Virus record (IMG/VR): IMGVR_UViG_3300012269_000002
Location: 146,407-161,293 of that record
Source: a virus
Lineage: Duplodnaviria; Heunggongvirae; Uroviricota; Caudoviricetes
DNA: 14,887 nucleotides
Direction: 5' to 3' (one strand)
The stretch's first letter is position 1, and each line of letters opens with the position of its first letter. Shown in pieces: positions 6,229 through 14,637 of the stretch. The translations under genes were made by a program, and so were the position numbers. Under the pieces are notes generated by a model, which was not told the DNA's origin, searched no databases, and was given only the letters and a program-made list of their open reading frames with translations.

Positions 6229-6942
6229 ATGAAAATTATATCTAAATTTAAGGATTATTATGACATAGGTATGTCTTTGGGTATTGACAAATCAATACAT
6301 TACGTTAGGACCTCAAATAGTGAAAGGGCGAGTAAAGAAATGGATGATTTATTATCACCCCCTGGTTGGGTAACATTAAAACAAAGTTATTCTTATACGG
6401 ATAAGAATACATTATTTAATGGTCATAATTTAGAATCCTATCACACCAGATTCTTATTTTTTTGTGGTAAAGTATATCCAGAGGTAATTTATACCTATAA
6501 AAGCAAAAAGAAATTTAATTCTGAGTTAATAACCAAAAGAATAATAGGGGTTGACGAGTGTTTAGAGTTCTTCAAAGAGATAGAATATGATTTCAAAGTA
6601 AATTGGAGTAAGTGGAATAGAGTTGAGTTATTTAATTTAGTTATTTCATCATTAACTGATAAAGTAATTCTTGATGAACATATTAAATACCAGTCACCCA
6701 CACTATATTATTATGAAACGGGGGTTTGGGAAGTTAATATTAACAAAAAATTAAGTGATATCGATTTTTATAGGAAAGTCGGTGAGTATCAGGCATTCCA
6801 AGAGATAAGCATGTTTCTAGGTTCAACATTAGTTGACGTATCAACCCCAAAGATGCCAGTAGGTGACGATAAAGTGATTATTAACAGCAAGGGTTTTGAC
6901 CCTAAATATGGTTTCAGGACCAGACCTAAAAAAACAAAATAA
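6229..6942 (+). CDS. Hypothetical phage-type protein, 237 aa
   Basis: Long ORF with MKIISKFKDYYD start and FQEISMFL...KGFD...FR end, a pattern I recall from phage hypothetical proteins. No function assigned. Confidence 0.75.
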   Translation: MKIISKFKDYYDIGMSLGIDKSIHYVRTSNSERASKEMDDLLSPPGWVTLKQSYSYTDKNTLFNGHNLESYHTRFLFFCGKVYPEVIYTYKSKKKFNSELITKRIIGVDECLEFFKEIEYDFKVNWSKWNRVELFNLVISSLTDKVILDEHIKYQSPTLYYYETGVWEVNINKKLSDIDFYRKVGEYQAFQEISMFLGSTLVDVSTPKMPVGDDKVIINSKGFDPKYGFRTRPKKTK

Positions 6943-6943
6943 T

Positions 6944-7066
6944 ATGGAACAACCAGTTAGAATTTTTAAATGCCCATGTAGGGGCAACAAGTACAAATTG
7001 GCTGGAAAGCCAAACGACAATCCAACGCTAAAAGAAAAATGGGAGTGGTGCGATAAGCATCTTTAA
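6944..7066 (+). CDS. Small hypothetical protein, 40 aa
   Basis: Not in ORF track. MEQPVRIFKCPCRGNKYKLAGKPNDNPTLKEKWEWCDKHL starts 1 nt after the previous stop and fills the gap. Confidence 0.55.
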   Translation: MEQPVRIFKCPCRGNKYKLAGKPNDNPTLKEKWEWCDKHL

Positions 7067-7077
7067 AATATAAATGT

Positions 7078-7395
7078 ATGGAAAGATTAATTGAACTAAC
7101 AAAGAGACATAAGGTGATAATGGACACTAAGAATATTATTGTCTCTATTTATACTAACGCATCAGGATTCCTTTGGAGTATGTGTATGGTGGATAGTGGA
7201 ACCGATTTAGGTTATTCCGAGTTTAATGGTAATTGTGAATCTTCAGGTTCATTTATAGAATATGAAGATGCCCTTGAAGATGCTTTGAATATGATAGACC
7301 TATGTGATTTGGATAAATTCAGGAGTGAAGTTACCGATAGGTTCCATTGGGGCAATTATACACACCATTTAGACTCCAATTATAGAAATAAATAA
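7078..7395 (+). CDS. Hypothetical protein, 105 aa
   Basis: Co-oriented ORF; no motif recognised. Confidence 0.75.
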   Translation: MERLIELTKRHKVIMDTKNIIVSIYTNASGFLWSMCMVDSGTDLGYSEFNGNCESSGSFIEYEDALEDALNMIDLCDLDKFRSEVTDRFHWGNYTHHLDSNYRNK

Positions 7396-7413
7396 AAATA
7401 ATTATAAAAAAAC

Positions 7414-7456
7414 TTGACTAATAAGAATACTTTTACTATATTTGCTTATATTTAAT
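7414..7456 (+). promoter_or_regulatory. Promoter region of tRNA array 1: Bacteroidota-type promoter plus TATTTAAT motif
   Basis: TTG 7414-7416, N20, TATATTTG 7437-7444; TATTTAAT 7449-7456. Confidence 0.8.
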
Positions 7457-7493
7457 AACAAAGGGTTAAACCTTTAATAAAATAAAAATAAAA

Positions 7494-7577
7494 ATGAAAA
7501 CAATTAATAACATACTATCTGTCCTTTGTTTATGTTTACTAGTCTTAGTGAGCGTGTCGGGCTGTGGAATTAATTGA
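7494..7577 (+). CDS. Putative attenuator leader peptide 1 (Leu/Val/Cys-rich), 27 aa
   Basis: MKTINNILSVLCLCLLVLVSVSGCGIN; lies between the promoter and a terminator directly preceding tRNA-Cys/Val/Leu. Confidence 0.75.
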   Translation: MKTINNILSVLCLCLLVLVSVSGCGIN

Positions 7578-7598
7578 ACTAAATTTTAATTAATATAC

Positions 7599-7632
7599 AA
7601 AGTCCGATACTGTAAAGCATCGGACTTTTTTT
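7599..7632 (+). terminator. Intrinsic terminator (attenuator) immediately before tRNA array 1
   Basis: aaagtccgat (7599-7608) / atcggacttt (7619-7628) stem plus a U-tract to 7632; tRNA-Cys starts at 7635. Confidence 0.88.
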
Positions 7633-7634
7633 AT

Positions 7635-7717
7635 GCCTAATTGCCAGAGTGGCCGAATGGGGCGGTCTGCAAAACCGCTAGAGAAATCTCACGTTGGTTC
7701 GAATCCAACATTAGGCT
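7635..7717 (+). tRNA. tRNA-Cys(GCA) with long variable arm
   Basis: Acceptor gcctaat/attaggc, anticodon arm gcggt-ctGCAaa-accgc, T arm gttgg-ttcgaat-ccaac, U73 discriminator, variable hairpin gaga-aa-tctc; no encoded CCA. Confidence 0.85.
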
Positions 7718-7730
7718 CAAATAGTGAAAT

Positions 7731-7805
7731 ACCTTTATAGCTCAGTTGGTTTAGAGCAACATTTTTACAAGGTGAAGGTCGGGGGTTCGACTCCCTCTAA
7801 AGGTA
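7731..7805 (+). tRNA. tRNA-Val(TAC), weak anticodon stem
   Basis: Acceptor accttta/taaaggt, D arm gctc/gagc, loop ttTACaa, T loop ttcgact. The anticodon stem has two G-U pairs and one mismatch. Confidence 0.8.
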
Positions 7806-7811
7806 CAAATT

Positions 7812-7897
7812 GGGCCAGTGGTGGAACTGGTAGACACGCAGGGTTTAAGCCCCTGTGCTCCGTAAGGGGCGTGAGGGTTCGAATCCCTCTTGGCCCA
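7812..7897 (+). tRNA. tRNA-Leu(TAA)
   Basis: Acceptor gggccag/ttggccc, caggg-ttTAAgc-ccctg, long variable arm, gaggg-ttcgaat-ccctc, A73. Confidence 0.92.
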
Positions 7898-7903
7898 CAA
7901 ATT

Positions 7904-7947
7904 GCCCCTATAGTGTAATAAAACCATGCATAAAGCATTAGTTCGAG
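7904..7947 (+). pseudogene. Degenerate tRNA 5' fragment; matching 3' acceptor strand at 8646-8652, at the far end of the endonuclease gene
   Basis: gccccta-ta-gtgtaa... and gttcgag remnant; tgggggt-acaaa at 8646-8657 is complementary to gccccta and carries the acaaa trailer seen after most tRNAs here. Confidence 0.5.
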
Positions 7948-7969
7948 TATTTATAATTAAAAATATAAT

Positions 7970-8662
7970 ATGAAAAATTGTGAAAATTGCGATAAATTAC
8001 AAAATAGTTCTTATGGTTCTGGGAGGTTTTGTGATTCTAAATGCGCTAGAGGTTTCTCAACTAAAAATAAACGAGGTGAAATTAATAAAAAGATTAGTAA
8101 AACCTTAACAAGAGAAGACTCTTTATTCAATAGAAAATGTAGATTTTGTAGTGAAGAATATAAGAGTTATAAAAATAAAAATGTTTTATATTGTAGTAAT
8201 AAATGTAGGGCTAAATATAACTGGAGTGATGAAGACTACCGAAAGCGTCAGATAGCCATTATTAGAGAGCGATGTGATAATGATGAAGAGAGAGAACGAC
8301 TTAAGGAAATAGGTAGAAAAGGTGGTTTTGGTAAAAAGGGATATACTAAAAATGGTGTTTATTTTGAATCTAATTTTGAAAAAAAATGTTTTGAGTTTTT
8401 AGATTCAAAATCAATTAAATTTATACCACATAAACCAATACCTAATTCTAGTAAAATTAGTGATGTTTATTTAAATGATTTTGAATTATGGATTGAATTA
8501 GATGGGGTTGATAGAGAAAAGAGAAAAAAATGGTTAGGTGAAAATTATAAGTATTGGTTAAATAAATTAGAAATATATAAAAGAGAGGGGATAAATGTAA
8601 AAATAATTAAAACTTATGATGAGTTTGTTAGATTTATAATAAAATTGGGGGTACAAAATTAA
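7970..8662 (+). CDS. Zinc-finger + PD-(D/E)XK (Vsr/DUF559-like) putative homing endonuclease
   Basis: CENC...GSGRFCDSKC and CRFC...YCSNKC fingers; FESNFEKKCFEFL...SDVYL...WIELDG nuclease core; located inside the tRNA array. Confidence 0.75.
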   Translation: MKNCENCDKLQNSSYGSGRFCDSKCARGFSTKNKRGEINKKISKTLTREDSLFNRKCRFCSEEYKSYKNKNVLYCSNKCRAKYNWSDEDYRKRQIAIIRERCDNDEERERLKEIGRKGGFGKKGYTKNGVYFESNFEKKCFEFLDSKSIKFIPHKPIPNSSKISDVYLNDFELWIELDGVDREKRKKWLGENYKYWLNKLEIYKREGINVKIIKTYDEFVRFIIKLGVQN

Positions 8663-8721
8663 TGATTATGTATGTAAAAATTTACGGTTTTGGTTAGTGC
8701 AAATAAAAGCACATCAAAACT

Positions 8722-8895
8722 ATGGGAAGACACAAAATAATTGTCGAAAACACAACAGATAGTCGTGTGTATAAAATGACTATGAGAAAAGTACATTTAC
8801 ACTGTGATTTTTGTCCACCTAATAAAGGGTGTAATGGAAAGAAATATGGTATAGATGATAACTGGAAGAATTATAAAAATAAACAGTGGGGTTAA
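8722..8895 (+). CDS. Small Cys-containing hypothetical protein, 57 aa
   Basis: Not in ORF track. MGRHKIIVENTTDSRVYKMTMRKVHLHCDFCPPNKGCNGKKYGIDDNWKNYKNKQWG contains H-x-H-C-x-x-C-P-P...C, a possible metal site. Confidence 0.65.
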   Translation: MGRHKIIVENTTDSRVYKMTMRKVHLHCDFCPPNKGCNGKKYGIDDNWKNYKNKQWG

Positions 8896-8907
8896 CCCCC
8901 ACAAATT

Positions 8908-8993
8908 GCCCTAGTGGTGGAACTGGTAGACACACAGGGTTTAAGCCCCTGTGCCTCGTAAGGGGCGTGAGGGTTCGACTCCCTTCTGGCCCA
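8908..8993 (+). tRNA. Second tRNA-Leu(TAA) copy with mismatched acceptor stem (possible pseudo-tRNA)
   Basis: Near-duplicate of 7812-7897, but the 5' strand is gccctag against 3' ctggccc (two C-C mismatches). Confidence 0.65.
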
Positions 8994-9001
8994 CATATTA
9001 T

Positions 9002-9027
9002 GGCTTAGTGGTGGAATGGTAGACACG
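9002..9027 (+). pseudogene. 5' fragment of a tRNA-Leu (acceptor strand + D arm)
   Basis: ggcttag-tg-gtgg-aatggtaga-cac-g, then abruptly non-tRNA sequence; can pair (with 3 G-U) to ctaggtt at 9663-9669. Confidence 0.6.
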
Positions 9028-9035
9028 TTTAAAAT

Positions 9036-9118
9036 AGCTCAGTGGGTAAAAAAGCGAACGGCAGAGCATTGGTCCTTAGAAGGCCAGACCTTTAAGGGTT
9101 CGAATCCCTTCTGAGTTA
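9036..9118 (+). tRNA. Atypical tRNA-Leu(TAG)-like gene
   Basis: Acceptor agctcag/ctgagtt, tggtc-ctTAGaa-ggcca, aaggg-ttcgaat-ccctt. It has an extra ~9-nt A-rich insert before the D arm and only a ~7-nt variable region. Confidence 0.55.
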
Positions 9119-9172
9119 CAAATTATTATACACTAAAGTAGCCTTTCATTAATGTGTACCGTATTTATTAAT

Positions 9173-9622
9173 ATGAGAATAGATATATTAGAAAGAAAAG
9201 ATGAAATTAATGGGTGGATTGATATTAATCAATCTAAAGCGTTTATATGTAGAGAATTAAAGTGTAAACCAGAAACATTAAATTCTTATTTAGATAAAAT
9301 GGGTATTATTTATGGTGGTAATAAAGGTGGTAAAAATATTAAAATTAGTAACGATAGAAAAACAGCTCTAGAATATTCAAAGTCAACATGTGTTAAAAGT
9401 AATTTATTAAAAAATAAGTTAATAGAAGATAATGTAAAAAAACATAAATGTGAAAATTGTGACTTACATATGTGGATGGGTAAATTAATACCTATAGAAT
9501 TACACCACATTGATGGTAATAAATATAACAATAAATTTACTAATTTACAGATTTTATGTCCTAATTGTCATTCATTAACAGAAAATAATTCTGGTAAAAA
9601 TAAAGGAAACTATAATAAATAA
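9173..9622 (+). CDS. HNH endonuclease (start probably 9173 rather than 9152)
   Basis: KCENC...IELHHIDGNKYNNKFTNLQILCPNCH motif; TATTTATT at 9162-9169 precedes ATG 9173. Confidence 0.9.
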   Translation: MRIDILERKDEINGWIDINQSKAFICRELKCKPETLNSYLDKMGIIYGGNKGGKNIKISNDRKTALEYSKSTCVKSNLLKNKLIEDNVKKHKCENCDLHMWMGKLIPIELHHIDGNKYNNKFTNLQILCPNCHSLTENNSGKNKGNYNK

Positions 9623-9670
9623 GAAACCAATGCTCGAAAGGGCGTGTGAGTTCGAATCTCACCTAGGTTA
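9620..9670 (+). pseudogene. 3' half of a tRNA-Leu starting in the anticodon loop, overlapping the HNH stop codon
   Basis: taagaa-accaa-long variable arm (gctc-gaaa-gggc)-gtgag-ttcgaat-ctcac-ctaggtt-a-caaa. Confidence 0.7.
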
Positions 9671-9700
9671 CAAAGGATGATTACAGCAAAAGAAAACGGA

Positions 9701-9774
9701 TAAAAAAGCGAATGGCAGAGCATTGGTCCTAAGAAGGCCAGACCTTTAAGGGTTCGAATCCCTTCTGAGTTACA
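9701..9774 (+). repeat. 74-bp copy of 9047-9120 (5'-truncated Leu-like tRNA, anticodon AAG)
   Basis: Identical to 9047-9120 except two positions, one of which is the wobble base (T9077 vs A9731); the acceptor 5' strand is missing. Confidence 0.9.
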
Positions 9775-9776
9775 TT

Positions 9777-9804
9777 AAAAGGTTGGTATTTACCAGCCTT
9801 TTTT
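9777..9804 (+). terminator. Intrinsic terminator closing tRNA array 1
   Basis: aaaaggttggt-attt-accagcctttttt hairpin with U-tract. Confidence 0.85.
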
Positions 9805-12092: not shown

Positions 12093-13295
12093 ATGAAGTT
12101 AATACATAAGTCATATAAGTTTAGAATTTCTCCTGACAATGAGCAGAAGATACTTCTCTCCAAACATTTTGGAGCAACTCGATTTGTGTTTAATCGTTAC
12201 CTGAATAGTAGAAAAGAAACTTATCTTGAAGAAAAGAAATCACTTAACTACTATGATAATGCGAATGACTTAACAAAACTTAAAAAAGAAGAAGAGTTTG
12301 TTTGGTTGAAGGAAATCAATAGTCAAAGTTTACAATCTTCTTTGAGAAATCTTGATACGGCTTACAATAAATTTTTCAGAAAGCAAACCCAGTTCCCAAG
12401 ATTTAAAAGCAAATACGACAAGCAAAGTTTTACCATACCTCAATCAGTATCTATTGAAGAGGGTAAATTGTGTATTCCTAAATTTAATAAAGGAATTGAT
12501 ATTAATATTCACAGAGAAATTGAAGGCAAACTTCTATTCGCCACAATATCTAAATCAACAACAGGGAATTACTATGTGAGTATAACCTGTGAGGTAGAAT
12601 ATACACCATTTGAAAAAACAAACTCAAAGGTTGGTATTGATACAGGGATTAAGGATTTGGCAATACTTTCAGATGGCAAGGTGTATGAGAATATTAAAAC
12701 ACTCAAAGCCAATTTAAAGACTTTAAAATACGAACAAAGACAATTATCTAAAAAAACAAAGGGAAGCAATTCCAGATTAAAACAAAAATCAAAACTTGCA
12801 AGAGTACACGAAAAAGTAACCAATATCAGGAAAGACTATTTGCATAAGGTCAGTACAGAAATCATCAAAAATCACGATGTAATTTGTATTGAAGATTTAG
12901 CTGTTAAGAATATGATGAAGAATCATAAGTTGGCACAAGCATTTTCTGATGTTTCGTTGGGTACTTTTTACACAATGCTTGAATATAAAGCTAATTGGAA
13001 TGATAAAGTAGTTGTTAAAATTGACAGATTCTTTCCGAGTAGCAAAAACTGCAACGTGTGTAATTACATTAACCAAGACCTAACTCTAAAAGATAGAGAA
13101 TGGACTTGTCTAAGTTGTAATACAATACACGACAGAGATTTTAACGCAAGCATTAATATTAAAAAACAAGGTTTAAAAATACTATCTGGTTCAGGAACTG
13201 ACTCGGATATAAAACAAAAACGGAGTAAGGCGTTGCCATTAGGTGAGTCTATGACCTCCGAAGCCCATCCCATGGGCTCTGCCGTGGGTGGGTAG
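12093..13295 (+). CDS. tnpB: TnpB RNA-guided endonuclease
   Basis: HTH start YKFRISPDNEQ, RuvC-I GIDTG, RuvC-II IEDL, Zn finger CNVC...CLSC, RuvC-III DRDFNASINI; all catalytic acids present. Confidence 0.97.
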   Translation: MKLIHKSYKFRISPDNEQKILLSKHFGATRFVFNRYLNSRKETYLEEKKSLNYYDNANDLTKLKKEEEFVWLKEINSQSLQSSLRNLDTAYNKFFRKQTQFPRFKSKYDKQSFTIPQSVSIEEGKLCIPKFNKGIDINIHREIEGKLLFATISKSTTGNYYVSITCEVEYTPFEKTNSKVGIDTGIKDLAILSDGKVYENIKTLKANLKTLKYEQRQLSKKTKGSNSRLKQKSKLARVHEKVTNIRKDYLHKVSTEIIKNHDVICIEDLAVKNMMKNHKLAQAFSDVSLGTFYTMLEYKANWNDKVVVKIDRFFPSSKNCNVCNYINQDLTLKDREWTCLSCNTIHDRDFNASINIKKQGLKILSGSGTDSDIKQKRSKALPLGESMTSEAHPMGSAVGG

Positions 13296-13339: not shown

Positions 13340-13420
13340 TTGATTATTACATTTTAATGTAGTATATTTGCAGTGTATTAAAAAATAAATGTACTTTTAA
13401 AGAAAAAGCACATATTTAAT
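13340..13420 (+). promoter_or_regulatory. Promoter region of tRNA array 2: Bacteroidota-type promoter plus TATTTAAT motif
   Basis: TTG 13340-13342, N20, TATATTTG 13363-13370; TATTTAAT 13413-13420. Confidence 0.8.
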
Positions 13421-13464
13421 TAAAAAGGATATTAATATCCATTAACGAATAAATAATAGAAATT

Positions 13465-13554
13465 ATGAAAACATTTAACAACATATTTGATTTTGCTATA
13501 GAAGCAGCCGAGGCGGATTTTAGCCTGGGGAGGTCGAGTATTGATAAAAGTTAA
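13465..13554 (+). CDS. Putative attenuator leader peptide 2 (Phe/Ala/Glu/Asp-rich), 29 aa
   Basis: MKTFNNIFDFAIEAAEADFSLGRSSIDKS; lies between the promoter and a terminator preceding tRNA-Ala/Phe/Phe/Glu. Confidence 0.75.
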   Translation: MKTFNNIFDFAIEAAEADFSLGRSSIDKS

Positions 13555-13585
13555 GTGTTCTAAAAAAACTAAATAACTAATTAAT

Positions 13586-13614
13586 AAACTCGATAGAAAT
13601 ATCGAGTTTTTTTT
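13586..13614 (+). terminator. Intrinsic terminator (attenuator) before tRNA array 2
   Basis: aaactcgata-gaaa-tatcgagttt plus U-tract. Confidence 0.9.
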
Positions 13615-14042: not shown

Positions 14043-14050
14043 CAAAACAA

Positions 14051-14076
14051 GGTACCTTAGCTCAGTTGGTAGAGCA
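14051..14076 (+). pseudogene. tRNA 5' fragment (acceptor strand + D arm) upstream of HNH gene
   Basis: ggtacct-ta-gctc-agttggta-gagc-a, D arm identical to that of tRNA-Phe at 14640; no downstream T arm. Confidence 0.65.
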
Positions 14077-14133
14077 CTTTGTAAAGATTAGTGTCACTTT
14101 TTTGTTTTTGTGATATTTATATAAAAAAGTATT

Positions 14134-14637
14134 ATGAAAATCGAAAAAGAAAAAATTAAAAATTTAGTAGAAGAGGGTCTTAATAATTCAGAGATTGCTG
14201 AAATAATAAATTGTCACAGGACAACTGTTCCAAAGAAGATGAAAAAATATGGAATAGAAAGACCAGAGAGTGATAACATTTGTTTGATTTGTGATAATGA
14301 AACCACATCGAGAAGAAATAGGTGTGATACATGTAACACTAAAATAAGAAGATACAGAGCTAAAAAAGCTGGTGTTGAATATTTGGGTTATAAGTGTAAT
14401 AGATGTGGTTGGTCTGGAGATTTATCTGGTTTTGATTTTCATCATATAGATGAAAAGAATTTTAATTTAGGTGCAGCTAAAATGGCGAACACAAAGTGGA
14501 AAGAAATTAAAAAAGAGTTAGATAAATGTGAGTTATTATGTGCATTATGTCATAGGTTAGAACATAGTGATTATGATAATGAAGTATTTTTGAAGATTGC
14601 CAATAAAAAAAGTGAAGATTTAATCTTCAAGGAATAA
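14134..14637 (+). CDS. HNH endonuclease with N-terminal HTH and zinc fingers
   Basis: GLNNSEIAEIINCHRTTV (HTH), CLIC/CDTC, KCNRCG...FDFHHID...CELLCALCHRLEH; TATTTATA at 14114-14121. Confidence 0.88.
   Translation: MKIEKEKIKNLVEEGLNNSEIAEIINCHRTTVPKKMKKYGIERPESDNICLICDNETTSRRNRCDTCNTKIRRYRAKKAGVEYLGYKCNRCGWSGDLSGFDFHHIDEKNFNLGAAKMANTKWKEIKKELDKCELLCALCHRLEHSDYDNEVFLKIANKKSEDLIFKE

Follow-up and report, generated by a model that had tools for sequence, protein, structure and literature searches.

Phage transfer RNA (tRNA) genes are usually viewed as spare parts that are supplied constitutively, and the reason why phages carry them is debated, with codon-usage matching, compensation for host tRNA decay and escape from tRNA-cleaving defences all having been proposed. 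The locus described here raises the question of whether such genes may be kept behind a switch that reads the state of the tRNA pool. It lies in a 14,887-nt stretch of DNA (hereafter the window) from a virus record of the class Caudoviricetes (IMG/VR record IMGVR_UViG_3300012269_000002, positions 146,407 to 161,293), in which a short open reading frame (ORF) rich in Leu, Val and Cys codons and an intrinsic terminator stand directly before tRNA genes for Cys, Val and Leu. The window is the final 14.9 kb of a 161,293-bp phage contig, 30.8% GC; the whole contig carries 19 tRNA-type genes and a transfer-messenger RNA gene, and its DNA was found in sequencing runs of lake-water metagenomes, no RNA run being listed for it. 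A previous reading made from the letters of the window (the sequence-only reading) had taken the short ORF for the leader peptide of an attenuator. Based on comparative and computational evidence, we consider it probable (roughly 85%) that this Leu/Val/Cys unit is a ribosome-mediated leader-peptide transcription attenuator gating the phage tRNA array, and that slow reading of Leu, Val and Cys codons by ribosomes is probably needed for the Cys, Val and Leu tRNAs to be made.

Organization of the Leu/Val/Cys unit

The unit consists of the following features:

7414..7444, + strand: Bacteroidota-type promoter, with TTGACT at 7414-7419 (TTG at 7414-7416) and TATATTTG (TAnnTTTG) at 7437-7444
7460..7475, + strand: small hairpin AAAGG/CCUUU in the 5′-untranslated region (UTR), from a predicted fold
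7494..7577, + strand: leader ORF of 27 codons, with the head MKTINNI at 7494-7514, the sensor (codons 8-18) at 7515-7547, and the tail (codons 19-27)
7554..7563, + strand: antiterminator 5′ strand (codons 21-24), pairing with 7601-7610; duplex −16.7 kcal/mol
7599..7632, + strand: intrinsic terminator, with the stem at 7599-7628 (dG −14.0 kcal/mol) and a T-run of seven at 7626-7632
7635..7718, + strand: tRNA-Cys (GCA), 84 nt, with a long variable arm, starting 2 nt past the T-run
7731..7806, + strand: tRNA-Val (TAC), called by ARAGORN/Infernal
7812..7898, + strand: tRNA-Leu (TAA), called by ARAGORN/Infernal
7904..8655, + strand: relic of a second tRNA-Val (TAC), of which only the ends are left (7904-7919 and 8645-8655)
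8908..8994, + strand: tRNA-Leu (TAA), second copy, called by ARAGORN/Infernal

The layout drawn in the sequence-only reading, namely a promoter at 7414-7444, a 27-amino-acid ORF at 7494-7577, a strong terminator at 7599-7632 and a tRNA-Cys gene 2 nt later, is what we find. The two promoter boxes fit TTG...TAnnTTTG, the known promoter pattern of Bacteroidota. The ORF, which has its own start and stop codons, begins 50 nt downstream of the −7 box, and the interval between the 5′-UTR hairpin and its ATG is an A-rich tract with no Shine-Dalgarno sequence. The sensor codons spell L S V L C L C L L V L, and residues 8-21 comprise six Leu, four Val, two Cys and two Ser, which gives 12 L, V or C residues out of 14; the peptide is entirely free of A, F, E and D, and both of these observations agree with the previous account. 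Codons 19-27, the tail, carry the antiterminator strand. The terminator stem was missed by a simple hairpin scanner because of its loop limit of 8. As tRNA-Cys begins only 2 nt after the T-run, the array can be transcribed only through the terminator.

The tRNA genes of the window were called with ARAGORN and Infernal. In tRNA-Cys(GCA), an 11-nt insertion makes the long variable arm, and the discriminator base is U, which is unusual for tRNA-Cys. It had also been claimed that the Leu codons of the leader (TTA three times, CTA twice and CTT once) are exact complements of three Leu anticodons in the array (TAA, TAG and AAG). The codon counts stand, and so does the TAA anticodon, which is present twice (from 7812 and from 8908); Leu genes with TAG or AAG were detected in the array by neither ARAGORN nor Infernal, even at an expectation value (E) ≤5. 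Since only Leu-TAA is detectable, the CTA and CTT codons of the leader are left without a partner in this window.

Leader codons and tRNA arrays in related units

Relatives of the unit were sought by scanning IMG/VR and JGI metagenomes with the 21-nt leader head that is common to the two leaders of the window (the second of which is described below), and a looser scan was added, which returned mainly chance ORFs without terminator or tRNAs and contributed only L035 among the matches listed. After duplicates were dropped, 27 non-identical units of at least 10 sensor classes were obtained, in which an ORF of 22-34 codons is followed by a hairpin with a T-run and then by tRNAs. The full records of five relatives were also scanned for the head and yielded no units beyond those already known, while a phage database search with window positions 6900-9100 gave tRNA-to-tRNA matches only, so that no cultured relative was found.

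The layout of these units is constant. The hairpin and T-run are present in all 33 true units at 18-32 nt past the stop codon, the exception being the frameshifted copy L182 (5 nt), and a terminator is absent from L049, L050 and L129, which are chance ORFs with the same head and with tRNAs behind them. The promoter motif occurs no more than 120 nt upstream of 19 of 28 units (background 0.02 per 120 nt), and in 16 of 28 the first tRNA lies within 30 nt of the T-run, which leaves no space for a promoter of its own.

The sensor block varies together with the array. Seven Gln codons precede four tRNA-Gln genes in L193, and a Ser run (TCT, TCG, TCA and AGT) precedes Ser-tga, gct, tga and gga in L199. 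The R/L/Q sensor of L169 has 12 of 12 codons read by one of the nine anticodons behind it (Arg cct, tct, gcg and tcg; Leu gag, cag and tag; Gln ttg and ctg), the sensor of L135 has 11 of 11 read by its own array, and an S/L/R/H block in L177 is followed by Ser, His, Arg and His. The L/V/C class stands before Cys, Val and Leu tRNAs in L002, L133, L135, L139, L144, L148, L170, L175, L178 and L181, and an F/A/E/D class precedes tRNAs for Phe, Glu, Asp and Ala. Among the relatives, L006 has an ORF identical to the leader of the window, and L135 and L144 carry Leu tRNAs with TAA, TAG and AAG. With one representative per class, the own array serves on average 0.52 of the residues at sensor positions 8-21, a value reached in none of 200,000 permutations of arrays among leaders. 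Of the 209 sensor codons that specify array amino acids, 169 have an anticodon in the own array that can read them directly under strict wobble rules.

This matching bears on a more ordinary explanation, in which a chance ORF, the relic of a signal peptide or a gene for a small lipoprotein happens to stand before a hairpin that is nothing more than a terminator or processing site, and the peptide resembles the tRNAs in composition by coincidence. The Leu/Val/Cys peptide does have a lipobox-like VSGC after its hydrophobic stretch, many secreted proteins and lipoproteins of Bacteroidota start with MKTxNNI, and L, V and C are common in signal peptides. However, only four residues lie beyond the lipobox Cys, the tRNA 2 nt past the T-run can be reached only through the hairpin, the codon match is specific to one reading frame (see below), and the sensors of homologs that share the head are not hydrophobic (poly-Q, poly-S, R/L/Q and F/A/E/D) and follow their arrays. 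The case that the sequence-only reading had itself named as fatal, homologs keeping a hydrophobic signal-like peptide whatever the tRNAs behind it, is thus not what the family presents. The sensors of the homologs and the permutation result largely refute the lipoprotein or chance explanation, and we regard it as very unlikely.

The matching also depends on the reading frame: between 0.45 and 0.54 of the sensor triplets are readable by the own array in the frame set by the ATG, compared to 0.10 in frames +1 and +2 and 0.19 when the arrays of other units are used. Such confinement to the ATG frame favours translation over complementarity at the RNA level, which is what would be expected if the leader RNA sensed tRNAs directly, without a ribosome, through codon-like triplets that pair with anticodons in the manner of a T-box. 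The sensor triplets are indeed exact complements of anticodons behind them, as direct pairing would require; against it, the matching triplets sit in a single ATG-set frame whose stop codon is at a fixed distance from the terminator, many different specifiers stand in a row where a T-box has a single one, riboswitch models, T-box included, give no match at E≤5, and the same architecture is found before a cellular ilv operon. Direct sensing by the RNA therefore seems to us extremely unlikely, and a translated leader the better explanation of the codon match.

Two further leaders were observed in the course of this comparison. On the − strand of L132 (leader at 9181 of the reverse complement) there is an E/R-rich leader with promoter and terminator, and behind it lies what looks like a tRNA with a CUUUCAA (Glu) loop, uncalled by ARAGORN; non-canonical tRNAs of this kind may reduce the apparent match between sensors and arrays. 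At L200:4039-4140, in relative G005, a 33-amino-acid ORF with another head (MNFIIDI...) is rich in H, F, E, Q, S, P and D and stands before Pro, Gln, His, Arg, Pro, Ser, Phe, Glu and Asp tRNAs, and judging from this ORF the family probably reaches beyond the MKTxNNI head.

The alternative helix and the geometry of the proposed switch

An attenuator of the proposed type needs an alternative to the terminator, and a 10-bp helix between 7554-7563 in the leader and 7601-7610 had been put forward for this role. The helix exists, with eight Watson-Crick and two G-U pairs, and is part of the predicted unconstrained minimum free energy (MFE) fold of 7460-7640 (z = −4.96; none of 200 shuffled sequences reaches as low an energy). 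Its downstream strand, 7601-7610, belongs to the 5′ arm of the terminator, which is thus common to both structures. A local hairpin at approximately 7531-7556 shares only 3 nt with the antiterminator strand.

Because a MAFFT alignment of the L/V/C class (class A) left the antiterminator strands out of register, co-variation was tested by comparing the pairing of each leader with its own terminator arm and with those of other units. The last 42 nt of the leader pair with the own 5′ arm at a mean of −10.4 kcal/mol and with other arms, which are equally GC-rich, at −6.8 kcal/mol, and this preference is reached in none of 20,000 permutations (p<5e-5). Matched leader and arm pairs include GUGUCGGGCU with AGUCCGAUAC in the window, AUGUCGGGCU with AGUCCGAUAU in L144, where the G7554-C7610 pair is changed to A-U, GAAUCAGGU with GCCUGAUUC in L148, and ACUGGGC with GCUCAGU in L002. 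In folds made without the 3′ arm, 21 of the 27 units pair the 5′ arm with a site in the ORF that lies 10-24 nt upstream of the stop codon's end, and when the whole RNA is folded, the terminator is the minimum-energy state in 26 of the 27.

The position of the ribosome was modelled as a 28-nt footprint on nascent RNA lacking the 3′ arm of the terminator. In this model the antiterminator forms with the A-site at codons 6-18 and never with the A-site at codons 19-27, and in the full transcript a ribosome at the end of the ORF lets the terminator fold. Taken together, the sensor/array matching, the frame specificity, the co-variation of tail and own arm and this footprint geometry strongly support the attenuator reading that had been derived from the sequence; every part that such a model requires is in place, and is either conserved or co-varying among the 27 units.

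Proposed mechanism and its weighing

We infer that the switch would operate as follows. Transcription would begin at the host-type promoter (7414-7444), and a ribosome would translate the 27-codon leader, whose codons 8-18 nearly all encode Leu, Val or Cys. Rapid decoding of this stretch would bring the ribosome to codons 19-27 and the stop codon, where it would mask 7554-7563; the terminator at 7599-7632 would then fold, and transcription would stop 2 nt short of tRNA-Cys. With charged tRNA for Leu, Val or Cys in short supply, the ribosome would stall in the sensor and leave 7554-7563 free to pair with 7601-7610 once the latter has emerged, and RNA polymerase would read through the Cys, Val and Leu genes, after which the transcript would be processed into tRNAs. 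As the product under control would be the very molecule that is sensed, the unit would act as a negative-feedback regulator of the tRNA pool. Candidate triggers may include loss of host tRNAs late in infection, a mismatch between phage codons and the host tRNA pool, and tRNA-cleaving defences; phage tRNA arrays have been discussed as a counter to tRNA-depleting defences.

Several points weigh against this interpretation. The support is comparative and computational throughout, and translation of the leader and variation in read-through are what we infer from it. No tRNA detected in the array is cognate to the two CTA codons, the CTT codon or the three Ser codons of the leader. Some arrays hold a tRNA that their sensor does not call for (Asn in L001 and Gln in L008, for example), and for the Val-rich sensor of L181 there is no tRNA-Val within 10 kb. 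The L/V/C-class peptide does resemble a lipoprotein signal peptide, and MKTxNNI is common at the N-termini of Bacteroidota proteins. The unconstrained MFE state of the Leu/Val/Cys unit is the antiterminator (−38.0 kcal/mol, versus a nearby −35.7 for the terminator), unlike that of 26 of the 27 units, and some leakiness may result. A conserved helix of the anti-antiterminator (1:2) type did not emerge, although no systematic search for one was made. Finally, folding with a ribosome footprint gave the switch for nascent RNA but not for the full RNA at equilibrium, which prefers the terminator with a ribosome stalled at codons 13-18, so that the model leans on co-transcriptional kinetics.

Some of these points would suit a leader that is translated and affects tRNA output by a route other than the antiterminator helix, for example Rho-type polarity, translation-dependent stability or processing of the precursor, or a nascent MKTxNNI peptide acting on the ribosome. 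Such a leader would fit the equilibrium fold with the ribosome at codons 13-18, the missing anti-antiterminator helix, and a head that is kept across sensor classes with its role unexplained, although the conservation of the head is partly built in because the head was the search pattern. By contrast, changes in the leader tail are matched in the 5′ arm of its own terminator, the pairing site is fixed at 10-24 nt before the end of the stop codon, and the gap from stop codon to terminator is conserved; all three are expected for an antiterminator and unneeded by these other routes. We consider a route that bypasses the helix unlikely, and prefer an attenuator in which the position of the ribosome decides between the two helices.

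Further units in the same genome and remodelling of the arrays

The Leu/Val/Cys unit is one of three in this genome, the other two being:

13340..13614, + strand: paralogous unit 2, with a promoter of the same kind, a leader at 13465-13554 and a terminator at 13586-13614
Genome positions 121509-121742, outside the window: unit 3, with a promoter at 121509, a leader of 32 amino acids at 121591-121689 that starts MKTGNI, and a terminator

Unit 2 has the head MKTFNNI, an F/A/E/D-rich sensor and a hairpin resembling that at 7460-7475, and its array consists of tRNA-Ala, Phe and Phe, followed by a cut tRNA with a TTC (Glu) loop. Its Asp codons predict a tRNA-Asp past the end of the contig, and relatives with a leader of this type do carry tRNA-Asp. 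The sensor of unit 3, of an H/M/S/N/W/R-rich class, contains AAC, CAT, ATG, AGT, TCG, AAT, TGG, AGA and CGT within codons 5-17, and its array comprises His-gtg, Trp-cca, Ser-tga, Asn-gtt, Ser-gct, Met-cat, Arg-tct and Arg-acg; eight of the nine listed codons are distinct and correspond one to one to the eight typed tRNAs. A scan with the head of unit 3 gave no matches. Judged by their codon blocks, the three leaders split the phage tRNA set among themselves.

Both arrays of the window also bear traces of rearrangement. The core of the tRNA-Val relic at 7904-8655, a gene that is intact in L006, is replaced by a 725-bp segment with a Cys-rich ORF of 230 amino acids (7970-8662), for which there was no Pfam match; the segment is probably a mobile, endonuclease-type insertion. 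Further downstream, 9001-9117 holds a 117-nt tRNA-like relic that is called by neither ARAGORN nor Infernal: its acceptor stem closes, its D arm is Leu-like, its anticodon loop reads CUUAGAA (TAG) and a T arm is present, but approximately 43 extra nt separate the D and anticodon arms. Each array contains one ORF with a weak match to HNH endonucleases, below the Pfam cut-off (9152-9622 and 14134-14637), and just upstream of the latter lies the 5′ half of a tRNA (14044-14090; acceptor and D arm only), which suggests that endonuclease genes have repeatedly remodelled both arrays. Between the two arrays, a 400-amino-acid TnpB-type ORF (OrfB_IS605, Cas12f1-like TNB and HTH_OrfB) occupies 12093-13295.

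Cellular ilv leaders and comparison with known attenuators

The system nearest in design to the phage units was found on a cellular Bacteroidota contig (L137:4230-4560, − strand), where two tandem Ile-rich leaders, each with a terminator, stand before ilvE-ilvD-ilvB. The first leader has the exact 21-nt search head (MKTVNNI) and the second begins with MKTN; the genes downstream match the Pfam families of branched-chain aminotransferase, dihydroxy-acid dehydratase and acetolactate synthase, and an HmuY gene adjoins. In both leaders the short sensor, GC-rich tail, hairpin with T-run, and spacing are as in the phage units, to which they are possibly related by descent. The L137 leaders differ in that they control bacterial genes for amino-acid biosynthesis, and their attenuator function is deduced from the layout. 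From its sequence, L137 appears to be a host-type ilv attenuator that shares its head with the phage leaders. As its layout is that of a classical ilv attenuator, the phage units are built on the same chassis as a genuine kind of attenuator for amino-acid operons in what is likely the host phylum, and the phage chassis may have been taken from host ilv-type attenuators. We found no published description of Bacteroidota ilv leaders of the L137 type. When genome contigs were scanned for the head, no further cellular leaders came up; most occurrences were at the start of ordinary proteins, many being lipoproteins of Bacteroidota, so that the head cannot identify a leader by itself.

Among well-known systems, the leaders of Escherichia coli ilvGMEDA (ilvL) and ilvBN are multivalent leader-peptide attenuators. 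Like the phage unit, they contain several kinds of regulatory codons (Leu, Val and Ile in the ilv leaders) and a terminator 5′ arm shared with an upstream strand, and a stalled ribosome favours read-through, as is proposed for the phage unit. In contrast to them, the phage unit would control tRNAs rather than enzymes, has a Leu/Val/Cys sensor and Bacteroidota-type signals, and no 1:2 protector helix was found in it. The trp, his, leu, thr and pheA leaders (RF00513, RF00514, RF00512, RF00506 and related families) follow the same logic of codon runs as L193 and L199, and ribosome position likewise sets the choice between terminator and antiterminator; these classical leaders differ in having four segments, including a pause or protector hairpin, in regulating enzymes, and in belonging to other sequence families. 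The Rfam models of the Trp, His, Leu and Thr leaders and of the T-box had no match in 7400-9800 at E≤5, nor in the whole window at the gathering score. A match to the FopS small RNA at 7564-7635 (24.3 bits versus a gathering score of 56) was rejected as an artefact of the terminator hairpin.

The pheST leader (pheM) and T-boxes, both acting on genes for aminoacyl-tRNA synthetases, resemble the phage units in that a component of the translation apparatus is regulated by tRNA status; pheM, however, controls a synthetase and not tRNA genes, and T-boxes bind uncharged tRNA without a ribosome. Phage tRNA clusters such as that of T4 also have precursor transcripts and are interspersed with small ORFs and homing endonucleases, and we found no account in the literature of a leader-peptide attenuator before phage tRNA clusters.

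Significance for phage tRNA genes

That attenuation had apparently not been described for phage tRNA genes was suspected in the sequence-only reading, and our full-text literature search agrees, having found no account of leader-peptide attenuation of tRNA genes of either phage or cellular origin. The type of mechanism is known; the novelty lies in tRNA genes as its target, in the logic of feedback and in a phage family of modular build. The broader proposal, to which we give about even odds, is that these units form a modular and retargetable family of tRNA-pool sensors in Bacteroidota phages, with a constant head and switch and a swappable codon block, each letting its array be transcribed only while its own codons are read slowly, and that they are the first case in which a leader peptide attenuates tRNA genes, with feedback exerted by the product.

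If this is true, a textbook mechanism would be extended to a new class of targets and to Bacteroidota, a phylum whose gene-control signals are poorly known. The codon block would serve as a tool for functional annotation, predicting which tRNAs an array should hold, and such short, modular and codon-specific sensors could be reused as reporters of tRNA availability. For the phage itself, it would mean that the decoding speed of exactly those codons is gauged and that the tRNAs are made on demand, allowing a reaction within minutes to the loss of host tRNAs, including cleavage by anticodon nucleases, and the debate over why phages carry tRNAs would become a testable circuit.

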